Shown here one piece after another: positions 1,846 through 49,798 of a stretch of 64,000 nt of DNA (position 1 is the first letter of the stretch; each line of letters starts with the position of its first letter). The translations under genes and the position numbers were made by a program. The notes below the pieces were generated by a model. The model searched no databases. It was not told where the DNA came from and was given only the letters and a program-made list of their open reading frames with translations. This stretch comes from Candidatus Thorarchaeota archaeon (lineage in GTDB: Archaea > Asgardarchaeota > Thorarchaeia > Thorarchaeales > Thorarchaeaceae). The stretch lies in NCBI GenBank assembly GCA_963726195.1, contig CAVSBO010000016.1, forward strand, positions 225,675 through 289,674. Reading direction: 5' to 3'.

Positions 1846-4038
1846 CTGCCATCAAGACCGATTGAAGTCTTCTTTCCAATCGTTGAAATCAACAAGATTG
1901 CGGAAAGGGAGTCAACGGGCTTCGGCAGACGACACTATCGCCCTGTGTACGTAATACACAAGTGGTGGGCGCGAAGACTTGGCTCCGTCTTCCGTGCAAT
2001 ACTTCTGTATTCTCTTGCAGACAGCAGGTTGACAGAGTGGAATCAGAACCCCAGTGACCTGTGGGCATTCTATTCCCGTGACACACGTTTGAGCGGAAAG
2101 GTCGTTCTTGACCCGATGATGGGCGGAGGCACAACTGTCGTCGAAGCACTCAGGCTAGGATGCAAAGTCATAGGAGGAGACTTGAACCCCGTCTCTTGGT
2201 TTGTGGTGAAGAAGGAGATTGAGCAAATTGATACGAAGGTACTCAGGGACAGTCTCGTGAAGCTGGACAATGACCTCGGAAGTGAACTCCGTAAATACTA
2301 CAGGACTACGTGTCCTGAATGCGGCGGCAGTGCGGAAGCAATCTATTACTTCCATTGCAAAGAACTCGAGTGTGCAAATTGCAGCTCGAAGATTCCTTTA
2401 ATGCGAGATTTCTTTCTGACAAGATCCTCTAGGAGGACAGGGGACATCGTAGTCTGTCCAAACTGTTGGAGCGTCTTCGAAACGGCTGATGCATCGGCAC
2501 CGGCCAGATGCGCGAAATGCGGAACCCGATTCACTGCAAGAGGGATATCTTTCACTTCGGGACAGGAGTTCCTTTGTCCTAAACCAGGTTGTAGACCCAC
2601 ACGAATCGTCGAGGCCATTAGACGACAAGGTCGGCCTAAGGAACGAATGTATGCTATCGAGTTCTATTGCAGCGTATGTGATCAGACTGACAACCCAAGA
2701 CTGATGCACGGTAGAGGATACAAGGCTCCTGATGCTGCTGACCAAAGACTCTTGAAAGAAGCAGAAAGGGAGTTCGAAAGCGAAGCAGACCGACTGCCAA
2801 TCCCCGATGTTCTCATCCCCCAAGGAGTAGAGACCAGACGTGTCTTGAACCATGGATATGTGAGATTCAATGATCTGTTTAATGCAAGACAACTGCTCAA
2901 TCTCGGAAAGATATACAGGTGGATTCTGAGTGTTGAAGACTGGAATCTCAAAGAGTTTCTTGTACTGGCTTTCTCAAATTGCCTGAAGTACAACAATATG
3001 TTGTGCAAGTTCAATGGAACTAGGGGCTTCATAACCGACATCTTCAGAACTCACTCCTATTCTCCTTCGATGACTCCGGTTGAGAGCAACTGTTATGATA
3101 CAGCAAAAGGACGGGGGCCCTTCACGGCTTTCGTCAGGCTTGTAATTGAAGGAAAGGACTACTGCGCGGCCCCGTTTGAAAGGATAGTTGAAGGTGCTAC
3201 CATGAAAACGGTCCACTTCAGCACGCCGATTAAGAGCGAACTGGCGTTGGACTACAATGATTTTCGGGAGAATAAGCAGGCAATGTTGATTTGCGGCTCC
3301 TCAGTGAATATCGCCATTCCGGACAGCGCCGTAGATGCTGTTGTCACAGACCCTCCGTATGCGGGTAACGTGATGTATTCAGAGCTATCGAATTTCTTCT
3401 ATGTATGGTTGCGCATGGCTCTAAAATCCAAGTATCCTTGGTTCGAAAGTGAGACAGTTCCATGGGAAGAAGAAGTGATCTCTAACAAGATTCAGCAAAA
3501 GGGAGAGAAGGAGTTTCTTCGAGGACTCACTGGCGTCCTTGCTGAGGCCAACCGTACTCTGAAATCGGACGGTGTTCTCGTTTTCACATTTCATCACAGA
3601 AATCTCAACGAATGGGTTTCGGTGCTTCAGGCTGTGTTAGATTCTGGCTTCTCCGTGACTGCAGCATACCCGGTGAGAAGCGAGATGGAAGCCTCTACTC
3701 ACTTACGGCTAACCAACAGCATCAAGTATGATATTATTCTCGTATGCCGGAAAAGAGAGATGCAAAGCTATTCCAAGACTTGGTCTTCAGTGAAAAAGTC
3801 CATCGACAGAGCATCGAAAGAGGTTGTGACTATGCTCAAGACAGGAGGGGAGAAACCAACCCCGCTTGAGATACACATAATGACACTTGGAAAGTGTCTG
3901 GAGTGCTACTCGAAGTACTATCCTAATGTGTTCCATAACGGAAACAAAGTCACTGCAGAGGAAACTCTTCGTTCAATCAGTGCTGCTTCGGAATTGACTA
4001 CTCTGCACAATGGACTTCAAAGGAATGCGGAGACCTGA
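1846..4038 (+). CDS. DUF1156-type adenine DNA methyltransferase with Zn ribbons
   Basis: HKWWARR, VLDPMMGGGT (motif I), several CxxC, TDPPY (motif IV); frame extends upstream (PIEVFFPIVEINKIAERES) to a CTG preceded by GGAGGTG. Confidence 0.85.
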   Translation: MPSRPIEVFFPIVEINKIAERESTGFGRRHYRPVYVIHKWWARRLGSVFRAILLYSLADSRLTEWNQNPSDLWAFYSRDTRLSGKVVLDPMMGGGTTVVEALRLGCKVIGGDLNPVSWFVVKKEIEQIDTKVLRDSLVKLDNDLGSELRKYYRTTCPECGGSAEAIYYFHCKELECANCSSKIPLMRDFFLTRSSRRTGDIVVCPNCWSVFETADASAPARCAKCGTRFTARGISFTSGQEFLCPKPGCRPTRIVEAIRRQGRPKERMYAIEFYCSVCDQTDNPRLMHGRGYKAPDAADQRLLKEAEREFESEADRLPIPDVLIPQGVETRRVLNHGYVRFNDLFNARQLLNLGKIYRWILSVEDWNLKEFLVLAFSNCLKYNNMLCKFNGTRGFITDIFRTHSYSPSMTPVESNCYDTAKGRGPFTAFVRLVIEGKDYCAAPFERIVEGATMKTVHFSTPIKSELALDYNDFRENKQAMLICGSSVNIAIPDSAVDAVVTDPPYAGNVMYSELSNFFYVWLRMALKSKYPWFESETVPWEEEVISNKIQQKGEKEFLRGLTGVLAEANRTLKSDGVLVFTFHHRNLNEWVSVLQAVLDSGFSVTAAYPVRSEMEASTHLRLTNSIKYDIILVCRKREMQSYSKTWSSVKKSIDRASKEVVTMLKTGGEKPTPLEIHIMTLGKCLECYSKYYPNVFHNGNKVTAEETLRSISAASELTTLHNGLQRNAET

Positions 4039-4835
4039 GGAAGTAAGCCGAGTGCCAGTGCAAAGCAGAGGATAGTGAAGCCTGCCGAGATGATGAGCAA
4101 CGCCCAGTCGCTTGGACGCCAGCGCGTGGTGCGCAGGTACGTTCTCTTATCACTATAGCCAAAACCTCTACCGGTCATTGAGAGAGAGAGACTGTCAACC
4201 CTTGACAGGGCCGACACGAGTAGAGGAAAGAAAGTGTAACGTACGCTTCTGAGTATCTTGTGAATGCCGCCCACCTCAAGCGAAATACCTCTGGATTGCT
4301 GAGCCATCCGAACGATATTGTTCTCAGAATCGAATAGCGGGAGAAACCTTAGCGCTATGACCAGTGAGAATGAATACCTGTAGGGAATCCCAATCTTGGT
4401 CAGAGAGTAAGCAAGCAGCGTCGGGTCCGTGACCGAGACGAAGAGCATGCTGGAGAACACGATTACGAGAAATCTCACTACTATGTCTAAACCTCTTTCC
4501 ATGCCGAAATCGGTCACCGGGAAGAATGGACCAAAACTGCCTATTTGAGGCAACAGATAGAAGAGCGTTGAGCCATTTGCTATCACAACAATCTGTAGCA
4601 AGAACATCAGCGCCGCGAATGTGAGAATGAACTTCGTCCGACCTCTTGTCACCTTAAGCGGAACGTGCGAGAGCTTGAAACACACGAGAATGGAGAGAAG
4701 CACAAGTGCACTTAGTCGCCAGCTCGGGTAAACTACGATAGCAACTGCTAGAAATATGAGCGCACAAAGCTTCATCGCCGGATTCAAACGGTGAAGTGCT
4801 GTGTTCCTTTCGACGTATCCGATGCGTGAAGCCAA
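4017..4835 (-). CDS. ecfT: ECF transporter T component
   Basis: LHRLNP, TM helices, LRFLP, QSRG and GRGF motifs. Confidence 0.9.
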   Translation of the reverse strand: MASRIGYVERNTALHRLNPAMKLCALIFLAVAIVVYPSWRLSALVLLSILVCFKLSHVPLKVTRGRTKFILTFAALMFLLQIVVIANGSTLFYLLPQIGSFGPFFPVTDFGMERGLDIVVRFLVIVFSSMLFVSVTDPTLLAYSLTKIGIPYRYSFSLVIALRFLPLFDSENNIVRMAQQSRGISLEVGGIHKILRSVRYTFFPLLVSALSRVDSLSLSMTGRGFGYSDKRTYLRTTRWRPSDWALLIISAGFTILCFALALGLLPQVSAFL

Positions 4836-45158: not shown

Positions 45159-45301
45159 TGTATCACGCGCCCCATTGAGGACTGGTCCCAGAACTGCTCG
45201 GGCAGAAGACTGTGTATCTGTTTTATGGTATAGAGAACAAAGATGCACAGGACGATTCAGACAAAAACACACATCCCCTGAACAACACACGGTCTCGTGA
45301 C

Positions 45302-45319
45302 TTAGAACACGTGTTCCAA
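45302..45319. repeat. Palindrome copy 1 TTAGAACACGTGTTCCAA
   Basis: 17/18 match to copy 2. Confidence 0.9.
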
Positions 45320-45370
45320 CACACCAGCTTGATGATCAGTGGGTTGGGTGTGCCCAGACGTTCTGGTTAC

Positions 45371-45532
45371 TCCCCTCTGCTTCCACTGGAACATATGGAA
45401 AGAGATGTTGTATCGCGATAATACTACTATTACAAAATAAAATAGATGACATTCCGCTTACGAAACGAGTATTTATACTTATCGTCAAATATCGAACCAA
45501 TAAAGGATTCGCTCCACTGGAAGCAACGGGGT
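45371..45532. promoter_or_regulatory. Putative replication origin: inverted ORBs flanking an AT-rich unwinding element
   Basis: GTTCCAGTGGAAGCAGAGGGGA (- strand, 45371-45392) and GCTCCACTGGAAGCAACGGGGT (+, 45511-45532); about 118 bp AT-rich spacer. Confidence 0.75.
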
Positions 45533-45539
45533 CTAGGGT

Positions 45540-45557
45540 TTGGAACACGTGTTCCAA
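45540..45557. repeat. Palindrome copy 2 TTGGAACACGTGTTCCAA (perfect)
   Basis: Perfect 18-bp palindrome. Confidence 0.95.
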
Positions 45558-45560
45558 GTC

Positions 45561-45851
45561 CTAGTTCAGTTCCTTATTGACTTCAAACTTCTTAGTGATC
45601 AGTATGTCTTGGTATGATTCGAACAGTGCTTCAAATGCGCCCCTGTGCTCTGGGGGTACCAGTATCGCAGATGCAGTCACAGCAGTAGACCCCGAGCACT
45701 GCTCCAGCAAGCCCGGTTTCCGTTTCTCCCTGTAGCCCCCTTTGGTCTTCCACGAATACGCGAATCCGTAGAGCTCCTTTGTGAAAGACACTCTCCTAGC
45801 GTTCGCCTCACGTGCCCGCTTGCAATCGTATAGGTACAGATAGTAAACCAA
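45561..45851 (-). CDS. Small basic protein, possible Cas2/VapD-like ferredoxin fold
   Basis: YLYLYD..RRVSFTKELYG..PGLL..SAILVP; TTG start assumed. Confidence 0.65.
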   Translation of the reverse strand: MVYYLYLYDCKRAREANARRVSFTKELYGFAYSWKTKGGYREKRKPGLLEQCSGSTAVTASAILVPPEHRGAFEALFESYQDILITKKFEVNKELN

Positions 45852-45866
45852 GGCGATCCCGCATTC

Positions 45867-45884
45867 TTGGAACACGTGTTCCTG
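45867..45884. repeat. Palindrome copy 3 TTGGAACACGTGTTCCTG
   Basis: 16/18 match to copy 2; 15 bp upstream of the small gene start. Confidence 0.9.
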
Positions 45885-46010
45885 TTTCAGTTCGAGTATT
45901 ACAAAACCGTGTATATGAAAAGCTTAAAGCGAGAGCGACTGGTCGCTAGCGGCATCCGGCGACACCAACTATGAGCATCAGTACATCGATTTACACGAGG
46001 AGGGATCTCC

Positions 46011-48698: not shown

Positions 48699-49334
48699 CT
48701 ATCCTCTGAGACGTATCTGTATCGCTTCCAGCACGGCTTCGGCGCGCCGCGATTCCTGCTGGACCTCTTCGAGTTCGGTCTTCAGACGATAGCTATAGCC
48801 TGAGCGGCTTCCGTATCTCTCGAGATGCCCATTGCCACTATTCCACATTCTTCCAAGGTAAGTACAAGCAGTGCTCTTAGGCAACTCTTCATTGAACGCA
48901 CTTTGGTAGATTTCTGCAACATCTACTGACGAGAACTTGCCGTGTTTGAAGGAAGCATATATGATAACACGCATCTTCTCGTAATTACTCAGGGACTCAA
49001 AATGCCAATCATCAGCATGGCTTGCGGTCTCCTCGACAGCAGAAGTGAAAGTGTAGCCAGTACTAGTCTCCAAAAAGACTCTGAACTTATCCAGCATTTC
49101 TTCTGACGTGCCCTTTAATTGAAGACTGGACTCCTCGCTCGTCGATTCATCCACTACTACGATCTTCAAATCAAACGGTGACTCAGTTAGCGCGAGGATC
49201 TTCTTGAAGCGAGCAAGGGCCTCATCAGGTTTGACATACTTGCACTGGAAAACCTCACGAAGTCCCGGGCCTGAACTGTACGTGAACTCGTACACATAGT
49301 TTGTTCTCGCTTCATCACCCAACGGTATCACCAA
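48699..49334 (-). CDS. Hypothetical protein with C-terminal winged-helix-like domain
   Basis: FSSVDVAEIYQ..STACTYLGRM..LERYG..YRL. Confidence 0.65.
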   Translation of the reverse strand: MVIPLGDEARTNYVYEFTYSSGPGLREVFQCKYVKPDEALARFKKILALTESPFDLKIVVVDESTSEESSLQLKGTSEEMLDKFRVFLETSTGYTFTSAVEETASHADDWHFESLSNYEKMRVIIYASFKHGKFSSVDVAEIYQSAFNEELPKSTACTYLGRMWNSGNGHLERYGSRSGYSYRLKTELEEVQQESRRAEAVLEAIQIRLRG

Positions 49335-49631
49335 ACTGGCTTGTCTAACAGACGGACATGTTCACAAATCGTTTCCTTTCGCGAGTAGATAAGTGTGAGT
49401 ATGTGAATTGCTAATACCATAGTAAGTAGAACATGATGCGCATTATCAGAACCGGCTACCGACAGGCTAGACCTAGCACCAGAATCAGGCATTAGATGCC
49501 CCCAGTTGTCTATCAAAGCACCGATATCAGCACAACGTTCTCAAATCGTCTGTCTTCCAACTTTTCCAACATTCACTGGCCGGATACTTCTGTGAATATC
49601 GATACAACATATGATAGGTGTTGTATCTGTT

Positions 49632-49652
49632 TTCCACTGGCAGCGGAGGGGT
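49632..49652 (+). promoter_or_regulatory. Isolated ORB-like box TTCCACTGGCAGCGGAGGGGT
   Basis: Close match to the two ORBs at 45.4-45.5 kb including the G-string; intergenic. Confidence 0.55.
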
Positions 49653-49798
49653 GGTCTTATTTACAGTATCGAACGCCTCTATGCTTGGCTCAAGGCCCAA
49701 ACGGTACGATATGCACCCTTATTCCCGGACACCATTCACAGAAAGCGCGCCATTCACAGGAATCTGTTGTGAATGTGTGTTATTGCCATAAACTCCAT

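Follow-up and report, generated by a model that had tools for sequence, protein, structure and literature searches.

Why should three copies of one 18-bp palindrome be distributed around an origin-like element and a small gene in a Thorarchaeota archaeon, and could the product of that gene be the protein that reads them? Asgard archaea are, among known prokaryotes, those most closely related to eukaryotes, and as far as we are aware their replication origins have not been mapped. We addressed this question in a 64-kb stretch of Thorarchaeota DNA, hereafter called the window, as well as in the rest of the genome and in related genomes.

The palindrome, TTRGAACACGTGTTCYAA, was found at positions 45302, 45540, and 45867 of the window. 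A scan allowing up to 3 mismatches returned exactly 3 matches, compared to 0.01 expected by chance, and this number was reached in 0 of 100 shuffled sequences. The three sites named in the original prediction were thus borne out, and its statement that the motif is absent elsewhere in the window is also correct; three further copies lie on other contigs of the genome (C4:232775, C14:6658, and C15:117360).

None of the three copies is assigned to a strand. Copy 1 (TTAGAACACGTGTTCCAA, 45302 to 45319) represents the origin-distal flank; it is located 52 bp outside the left origin recognition box (ORB) and precedes the iorA start by more than 100 bp. Copy 2 (TTGGAACACGTGTTCCAA, 45540 to 45557) is a perfect palindrome located 8 bp outside the G-string of the right ORB, and it ends 3 bp from the stop codon (45561 to 45563, minus strand) of a gene encoding a 96-aa protein. 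Copy 3 (TTGGAACACGTGTTCCTG, 45867 to 45884) lies in the 5' region of the same gene, 15 bp upstream of its TTG start codon (45851 to 45849). The small gene is therefore bracketed by copies 2 and 3 as tightly as had been described. In addition, copies 1 and 2 had been proposed to form, with a GAC/GTC extension, a 21-bp inverted repeat. This repeat is present at 20 of the 21 positions, but the sister genome does not share the extension, which is thus probably not meaningful.

We then considered the element enclosed by copies 1 and 2. Archaeal origins are AT-rich regions flanked by ORBs, and G-string elements have been described (PMC4010727). Here, two inverted ORBs, each combining a TCCAnTGGA dyad with a G-string, surround an AT-rich spacer. 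The left ORB (CCCCTCTGCTTCCACTGGAA, 45372 to 45391) is on the minus strand, where it reads TTCCAGTGGAAGCAGAGGGG, and its G-string points away from the spacer, while the right ORB (CTCCACTGGAAGCAACGGGG, 45512 to 45531, plus strand) matches both the dyad and the G-string. The spacer (45394 to 45510, no strand) is 117 bp long and 69% AT, compared to 50% AT for the whole window, and is a candidate DNA unwinding element. The ORB-AT-ORB arrangement is therefore real. Only four ORB and G-string matches were found in the 2.9-Mb genome, two of them at this locus and one beside another palindrome, and the same layout recurs in related loci. Judging from these elements, the locus is predicted to be an ORB-type chromosomal replication origin of this archaeon.

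The predicted origin resembles the Orc1/Cdc6-bound oriC1 of Sulfolobus/Saccharolobus and oriC of Pyrococcus, in that inverted TCCAnTGGA ORBs with G-strings are placed around an AT-rich element. However, unlike these ORB-type origins, it has no orc1/cdc6 gene next to it, the Cdc6_C matches in the genome being confined to contig C10, and it harbors an additional palindrome on both outer flanks and an attached small gene. We found no description in the literature of a flanking palindrome or of an attached small gene at an ORB-type oriC. Along the 290-kb contig, the cumulative GC skew was noisy and showed no clear extremum at the origin site.

The small gene (45561 to 45851, minus strand) belongs to an unannotated Asgard family. 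Since most of its homologues are 95 to 97 aa long, the TTG start is favored over a GTG at 45875. No significant sequence match to the 96-aa protein was found in Pfam, NCBIfam, or the PDB, and a Pfam search with the protein and 39 homologues gave no match at an E value of 10 or below. An exhaustive profile search recovered only 15 clusters at 50% identity, among whose members a 321-aa protein is without a Pfam domain. Cluster P0116 was discarded as a spurious repeat protein. P0117, a marginal relative (E = 6e-4), was left out of the family because the small unknown genes among which it is clustered are accompanied by neither an ORB nor a palindrome.

The AF2 model of the protein (pLDDT 92) consists of a single ferredoxin-like domain with the order beta-alpha-beta-beta-(beta-beta)-alpha-beta. 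Its N-terminal half is strongly basic and conserved: the mean charge is +8.8 in this half and -5.8 in the C-terminal half, and conservation is concentrated in helix 1 and strand 2. The protein contains the helix motif NARRVxFTKELYG and an invariant Y8-D9. Foldseek searches with the model against the PDB and BFVD returned nothing at an E value of 0.001 or below. In the ESM Atlas, TM scores of 0.77 to 0.84 were obtained with unannotated archaeal proteins of 88 to 102 aa and with half of ~190-aa proteins carrying NTP_transf_2 domains, from which no function follows. The structural neighbors of the model are generic ferredoxin-like domains, and the fold is not a classical DNA-binding one.

The gene had been labeled Cas2/VapD-like. 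It could accordingly encode a solitary nuclease or toxin of this type, with the palindromes being its substrate or what is left of the repeats of a degenerate module, either CRISPR-like or of the toxin-antitoxin kind. The order of secondary structure elements is indeed the same (beta-alpha-beta-beta-alpha-beta), with Y-D ending strand 1, and the model gave structural Z scores of 6.2 to 7.3 with Cas2 and 6.5 to 7.0 with VapD. However, these scores are inseparable from those of dozens of unrelated ferredoxin-like folds, the top match, at 8.0 to 8.2, being no more than 1 to 2 Z units away and the matches including many unrelated ferredoxin-like domains. Because Cas2 and VapD are tied with so many other folds, the label is unproven. 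Furthermore, a genome-wide search with the PF09827 (CRISPR_Cas2) profile found no match in this genome (G000), and an hhalign comparison with 25 Asgard Cas2 proteins gave a probability of 0.3%. No cas1, CRISPR array, or antitoxin partner was found beside the gene, whose neighbors are iorA/iorB and AlaDH-like/saccharopine dehydrogenase genes; the gene is also single-copy, vertically conserved, and fixed in its chromosomal position. We thus consider a Cas2/VapD-type nuclease or toxin to be very improbable.

If the palindrome were an operator of the small gene, it would be expected close to its promoter. Indeed, copy 3 lies in the gene's own 5' region, downstream of two TATA-like AT stretches read from the sequence (TTTTCATATA and TTTTGTAATA, 45897 to 45921, minus strand). 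Either of these stretches would put the transcription start at or just before copy 3, and this copy is a candidate autoregulatory operator of the gene. A sigma-70 promoter scan returned nothing useful, the sigma-70 model being irrelevant to archaea.

Genome-wide counts link the palindrome to the gene. Six copies are present in this 2.9-Mb genome, and the 10-bp core of the palindrome occurs only 6 times, each time in the full 18-mer context. Related genomes harbor 1 to 27 copies, mostly intergenic. In a sample of 81 genomes, the mean number of palindromes was 5.8 in genomes carrying the gene, compared to the background level of ~1.0 in genomes devoid of it, the latter mean leaving out one genome of family f21 in which the gene was not found. 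Within f1, the family of the present genome, the exact 12-mer was found 1 to 15 times per genome versus 0 to 1 time for a reversed control. In the complete 3.6-Mb genome G060, the only two palindromes both flank the small gene.

The remaining palindromes are mainly located in promoters. Of the 36 sites that f1 has outside the origin, 24 are intergenic, as are 15 of the 16 sampled in f21, mostly at 40 to 150 bp from a start codon. Two non-origin targets are recurrent, namely, the MetRS upstream region and a second ORB-bearing promoter. The latter belongs to a conserved locus, found in at least 9 genomes, that comprises a palindrome, a TATA-like stretch, a single ORB, and a gene (gene B). No Pfam family matches gene B, for which only 7 homologues were found, and orthologues of the f1 genes at this second locus were not found beside the f21 palindrome sites. 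The original prediction named two observations that would speak against it, namely, a palindrome common at unrelated promoters, as for an ordinary regulon operator, and homologues that are never close to ORBs or palindromes. On the first point, the motif is operator-like elsewhere (second ORB locus, MetRS, and others); on the second, homologues do adjoin ORBs and the palindrome. Since other promoters carry the palindrome as an ordinary operator too, the factor binding it would be a regulator of a small regulon rather than a factor dedicated to the origin.

The co-occurrence of palindrome, ORBs, and gene, which had been proposed as a check, was confirmed in several distant Asgard families and in about 22 of the 24 f1 loci, where the order is palindrome, gene, palindrome, ORB, AT, ORB, palindrome. 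Considering each site separately in f1, a palindrome was found upstream of the gene in 21/24 loci, near the stop codon (0 to 75 bp) in 22/24, and distally, 180 to 380 bp beyond the stop, in 23/24. The upstream copy is also present in f19 and f21 and the stop-proximal copy in f2, f7, f19, and f21; f2 harbors the variant GAACATATGTTC at the equivalent positions. The gene itself is single-copy in 23 of the 24 f1 genomes and was found in six other families. Among the five more distant families mapped, it adjoins ORBs in at least three, and the flanking genes differ there. In f3, f7, and f21, an ORB or ORB-like pair is what the gene's 3' end is turned toward, while in f16 and f19 the boxes near the gene are degenerate or were covered only in part. 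Additionally, in f16 the small gene is divergent beside orc1/cdc6, and the palindromes are located 550 to 830 bp from it, beyond another gene. No homologue of the gene that follows the origin in f7 and f21 was found in the present genome.

This constancy bears on the suggestion that the palindromes are site-specific recombination sites, with the origin and the gene being cassettes that can be inverted or excised. Repeated identical sites do bracket two adjacent segments. However, order and orientation are the same in 41/41 mapped loci, no inverted or emptied form being seen, and no recombinase gene is found in the flanks. The sites are, moreover, perfect palindromes without an asymmetric core, and the same motif occurs singly at many promoters, including unrelated ones. 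We therefore find this suggestion unsupported and regard it as extremely unlikely.

The iorA-origin-gene-AlaDH-like neighborhood is syntenic throughout f1 and f2, indicating that much of the conservation at the family level is due to shared descent. The palindromes could thus be mere transcriptional operators of the small gene or iorA, their proximity to the origin being an accident of conserved gene order without any effect on replication. This would be in line with the fixed order in f1 and f2, with the behavior of the motif as an ordinary operator elsewhere, and with the presence of promoters in archaeal origins, which are intergenic. It does not account for copy 2, which sits 8 bp from an ORB on the 3' side of the gene, a place without a promoter that could be regulated. 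Among the three copies, the one next to the stop codon and the ORB is conserved most widely (f1, f2, f7, f19, and f21). Furthermore, the module formed by gene, palindrome, and ORB persists amid wholly different flanking genes, and a second, independent pairing of palindrome and ORB exists. Operators without a role at the origin appear improbable to us.

Family f3 differs from the others in that the gene is tightly beside ORBs without any palindrome. A replacement dyad was looked for in f3 and not found, and the helix-1 residues of the f3 protein resemble those of the palindrome-bearing families. The link between gene and origin is therefore wider than the link between gene and palindrome. This would be explained if the palindrome served as operator for some other, unlinked transcription factor regulating the small gene and a few further genes, and if the small protein had another origin-linked job, for instance, as a Cas2-like nucleic acid-binding or nuclease subunit or as a partner of Orc1 or MCM. 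The fold of the protein, which is not a standard DNA-reading fold, and the invariant Y-D closing strand 1, which recalls the metal-binding aspartate of Cas2, would both fit such a job. On the other hand, enrichment of the palindrome tracks gene presence from family to family, and the sole two sites of G060 bracket it; a regulator with one gene as its sole conserved target is usually the product of that gene. In addition, no alternative candidate was identified: LexA DNA-binding and S24 peptidase domains gave no hit over the cut-off in this genome, leaving no LexA-like rival binder. We consider an unlinked factor to be unlikely, although it deserves to be kept in mind.

The best-supported reading is the one in which a dimeric, possibly autoregulated product of the enclosed gene binds both origin flanks. 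Gene, palindromes, and ORBs travel together, the palindrome is enriched only in gene-carrying genomes, and the G060 sites flank the gene. The palindrome is, however, not restricted to the origin, f3 has the gene and ORBs without it, no clean covariation was seen between residues of the protein and the palindrome's central dinucleotide, and binding is deduced from sequence comparisons. Taking these points together, we see about an even chance that the 96-aa protein is an autoregulated dimeric palindrome binder that acts on a small regulon as well as at the flanks of the origin. The ferredoxin-like domain would dimerize, and the palindrome would be read by the basic N-terminal half, through helix 1 and the beta2-beta3 hairpin. 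Binding at copy 3 would repress the gene's own promoter, while binding at copies 1 and 2 would bring the protein right next to Orc1 at either side of the origin, where firing may be either helped or blocked. The second ORB-carrying promoter, the MetRS upstream region, and lineage-specific promoters would be further targets, and a small regulon would in this way be linked to replication initiation.

More tentatively, and as a possibility rather than an expectation, we propose that several Asgard families share an undescribed origin-accessory factor, a 96-aa ferredoxin-like dimer that would bind 18-bp palindromes (TTRGAACAYRTGTTCYAA) outside the Orc1 boxes, autoregulate, and link a small regulon, with MetRS and an ORB-bearing promoter among its members, to how Orc1-dependent initiation is controlled. 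We found no description in the literature of a sequence-specific accessory factor for any ORB-type archaeal origin. For Thorarchaeota and several further Asgard families, the locus provides an origin prediction that is both concrete and conserved. It also provides a defined cis-element and a small, easily expressed candidate protein, so that the idea can be tested in vitro without culturing the organism. Binding of the protein beside Orc1 would represent a new layer of archaeal initiation control and would show the ferredoxin-like fold in a new DNA-binding role. If the protein does not bind, the palindrome would still mark a conserved small regulon, with its regulator still to be found.

A non-Orc protein encoded beside the origin that it serves is known from Sulfolobus oriC3, where this protein is WhiP (PMC4010727). 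The comparison with WhiP made in the original prediction holds at the conceptual level only, because the small protein is neither winged-helix nor Cdt1-like. Indeed, WhiP is a Cdt1-related winged-helix initiator acting at an origin without ORBs, whereas the present locus has classical ORBs and a 96-aa ferredoxin-like protein in whose model no winged-helix domain is found. Some bacterial regulators have sites in oriC in addition to a regulon, e.g., CtrA at the Caulobacter origin. By analogy, the factor proposed here would be a single autoregulating protein whose operators lie at promoters as well as within or next to the origin, although the two differ in the domain of life, in the fold (here not a response regulator), and in the initiator (here Orc1, in the CtrA system DnaA). 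The DNA-binding domains of papillomavirus E2 and EBNA1 are dimeric and ferredoxin-like, read origin-flanking palindromes with helix 1, and also regulate transcription. They may serve as an analogy of mechanism only. The top structural matches do not include them, and none of the fold-search lists for the 96-aa model contained E2, EBNA1, or Rep-type origin binders.

Finally, the 12-bp core of the palindrome fits the consensus of the Gram-positive LexA "Cheo" box (GAAC-N4-GTTC). As no LexA DNA-binding or S24 peptidase domain passed the cut-off in this genome, we take this resemblance to be convergent. The exact 12-mer appears in a review on the SOS response of S. aureus (PMC11442139).

Within the window, TTGGAACACGTGTTCCAA was found at exactly three places (45302-45319, 45540-45557 and 45867-45884, hereafter copies 1 to 3) when up to three mismatches were allowed, versus 0.01 matches expected from shuffles. 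Copies 2 and 3 enclose a small gene, a 96-aa open reading frame on the minus strand (45561-45851): copy 2 lies 3 bp past its stop codon, and copy 3 lies upstream, 15 bp from its TTG start codon. Copies 1 and 2 surround an inverted pair of origin recognition boxes (ORBs), with CCCCTCTGCTTCCACTGGAA on the left (45372-45391) and CTCCACTGGAAGCAACGGGG on the right (45512-45531), both harboring the dyad and G-string typical of archaeal ORBs. The original prediction was thus accurate as to the number of palindromes and the geometry of both brackets. The 117-bp spacer between the boxes is 69% AT, compared to a window average of 50%. Archaeal origins are AT-rich regions with ORBs at their flanks (PMC4010727), and we regard this region as a highly probable ORB-type origin. 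Cumulative GC skew along the contig was uninformative in this respect. The GAC/GTC extension said to turn copies 1 and 2 into a 21-bp inverted repeat is present (20 of 21 positions) but absent from the sister genome, and we therefore placed no weight on it.

The 2.9-Mb source assembly contains just six instances of the 10-bp core AACACGTGTT, every one within the full 18-mer, and three of these are the copies in the window. One of the others (C4:232775-232792; L001:1501-1518) falls between the methionyl-tRNA synthetase (MetRS) gene and a ubiquitin-like (Ub-Mut7C) gene, in their divergent promoter. Another, with one mismatch (C15:117360-117377; L004:1501-1518), falls within the coding region of an Fpg/Nei DNA glycosylase gene, and the sister genome (G002) keeps it at the same place. 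The last, at C14:6658, belongs to a second locus combining palindrome and ORB (C14:6519-6675; L003:1362-1521), found in at least nine genomes of the family in a fixed order: a ferritin-like gene ends, the palindrome and then a TATA-like stretch follow, and a single ORB with G-string precedes the start codon of an unannotated ~126-aa gene, which gene callers stretch across the ORB to 155 aa. The ORB with G-string has four matches in the assembly, two at the origin and one 140 bp from the C14 palindrome. Palindrome and Orc1 box thus form two independent pairings. Since both Cdc6_C matches are on contig C10 (C10:63496 and C10:105906), no initiator gene adjoins the origin; neither an ORB nor a palindrome was detected on C10. 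The match at C10:105906 sits in an open frame of just 110 aa.

The small gene is single copy in 23 of 24 sampled genomes of the home family (f1). We counted palindromes at 24 family loci, each oriented on the small gene, and found one upstream of the start codon in 21, one 0 to 75 bp past the stop codon in 22, and a further one 180 to 380 bp past the stop codon in 23. The ORBs are located between the stop-proximal and the distal palindromes, with about 23 to 82 bp from ORB to palindrome, indicating that the order is conserved and the exact phasing is not. In f1 and in family f2, where AGAACATATGTTCT stands at both sides of the ORB pair, the module is invariably flanked by iorA at one end and by an AlaDH-like gene at the opposite end, and part of this conservation is therefore due to shared descent.

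More telling are the distant families, with 35 to 45% protein identity and wholly different flanking genes. The homologues carry the source names Candidatus Thorarchaeota or Promethearchaeota, and one distant branch is Candidatus Jordarchaeales (f7). There, one or two palindromes are found at the stop codon of the small gene. Beyond them, L028, the locus read completely, has an ORB and then an ORB-like box, separated by AT-rich sequence. In families f19 and f21, the gene stands between two palindromes; in f21, two ORB-like boxes enclosing AT-rich sequence come next, and in the f19 locus a degenerate left box is the sole ORB trace within the part viewed. In f16 (L109 of genome G063, flipped, 2002-4200), the small gene is divergent from an adjoining orc1/cdc6 gene, and a small winged-helix gene precedes two palindromes that enclose AT-rich sequence with degenerate ORBs. 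The three f3 loci harbor an ORB pair 6 to 12 bp (two loci) or 192 bp (one locus) from the small gene, and no palindrome, whether intact, degenerate, or substituted, was found in them. The predicted association of palindrome, ORBs, and gene thus recurs in the home family and in distant ones, with f3 lacking the palindrome. Beyond the origin, f7 (L028, flipped, 3575-3991) and f21 (L132, 2160-2507) share a conserved gene of roughly 115 to 140 aa (motif ...LAxAL..GDRK.AI...); no homologue was found in the source assembly.

In all 41 loci, the 3' end of the small gene is directed toward the ORBs, or toward the downstream palindromes where no ORB was found. This bears on the proposal that the palindromes are recombination sites making cassettes of the origin and the gene: beyond the repetition of the sites nothing speaks in its favor, and not one of the 41 loci showed an inverted or emptied arrangement.

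Across 81 genomes of the phylum, the small gene was present in f1, f3, f7, f16, f19, and f21, and it was not found in 15 other families; because kin are not independent, co-occurrence was counted by families. GAACAYRTGTTC had a mean count of 5.8 in genomes bearing the gene, versus 0.6 for the reversed control, and of about 1.0 in genomes without it, leaving out one f21 genome (82% complete, 23 sites, no small-gene match). No family without the gene was enriched in the motif. It was found at the small gene or the origin in five of the seven families bearing the gene and 550 to 830 bp from the gene in a sixth, f16. Genome G060 (complete, 3.6 Mb) contains just two sites, located 106 bp upstream and 7 bp downstream of the small gene.

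Away from the origin, 24 of 36 sites in nine f1 genomes are intergenic, mostly 40 to 150 bp from a start codon. The two f21 genomes (G081 and G074) each harbor 25 to 27 matches to the 18-mer TTAGAACATATGTTCTAA when as many as two mismatches are tolerated (control, 0), and in G081 no fewer than 15 of these are perfect. Of 16 sampled sites (L124 to L139), two of which are at the small gene itself, 15 are intergenic. Among 22 family genomes, about 10 have a palindrome upstream of MetRS, as do both genomes of f21, while pyrF, histone deacetylase, transporters, and an ArsR-type regulator are lineage-specific targets. The targets in f21 include MetRS, pyrF, histone deacetylase, membrane proteins, and an ArsR-type regulator. 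These promoter-type sites indicate that the factor is a regulator with a small regulon. Occurrence at unrelated promoters, named in the original prediction as counting against it, thus applies in part; the factor's most conserved sites are at the origin and its own gene. Overall, a symmetric, sequence-specific DNA-binding protein very likely uses the palindrome as its operator.

The homologues of the small protein are mostly 95 to 97 aa long and start at the TTG position; the eight residues added by an upstream GTG are not conserved. The family is small: in a set of 1.8 billion representatives, its members form 15 clusters when grouped at 50% identity, and searches of Pfam, NCBIfam, and PDB sequences gave no match. 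The confident AlphaFold2 model (pLDDT 92; strand, helix, two strands, short helix, hairpin, helix, strand) predicts a sandwich of the ferredoxin-like type to which a hairpin is added. The best-conserved residues cluster in helix 1 (NARRVxFTKELYG) and strand 2, and the mean charge is +8.8 in the N-terminal half and -5.8 in the C-terminal half, a pattern compatible with a nucleic-acid-binding face. The best structural matches (Z 8.0 to 8.2) reflect the generic fold only, with Cas2 (Z 6.2 to 7.3) and VapD (6.5 to 7.0) interspersed with ribosomal S6, ACT/RAM, NikR-C, and carboxypeptidase pro-domains. The Cas2 profile did not match, and hhalign against 25 Asgard Cas2 proteins gave 0.3%, the N termini being nevertheless in the expected register. 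Hence, the Cas2/VapD-like label is a possibility rather than a finding. Closer shapes (TM about 0.8) were found in the ESM Atlas among unannotated archaeal proteins of 88 to 102 aa and as half of nucleotidyltransferase-domain proteins of about 190 aa; these matches imply no function.

In the literature searched, neither palindromes nor small genes were described as accompanying ORB-type origins, Asgard or other. The 12-bp core matches the Gram-positive LexA (Cheo) box GAAC-N4-GTTC, and the only appearances of the 12-mer in the literature searched are as this box or as part of unrelated primers. No LexA-like rival binder was found among the proteins of the source assembly, and we take the resemblance as convergent. 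The most economical reading, to which we lean modestly, is that the adjoining small protein binds the palindrome, given the bracket around its gene, the phyletic coupling, and the two sites of G060; arguments to the contrary are family f3 and the unconventional fold.

Another ORB-like box, the third, is found 4.2 kb from the origin (TTCCACTGGcagcggaGGGGtgg, 49634-49656). It lies on the upstream side of a gene for a 211-aa protein (48699-49334, minus strand), whose sole match is a weak one to OTU proteases rather than to a winged helix, and is preceded by the inverted repeat CGATACAACAT...GTTGTATC (49600-49656 with the box).
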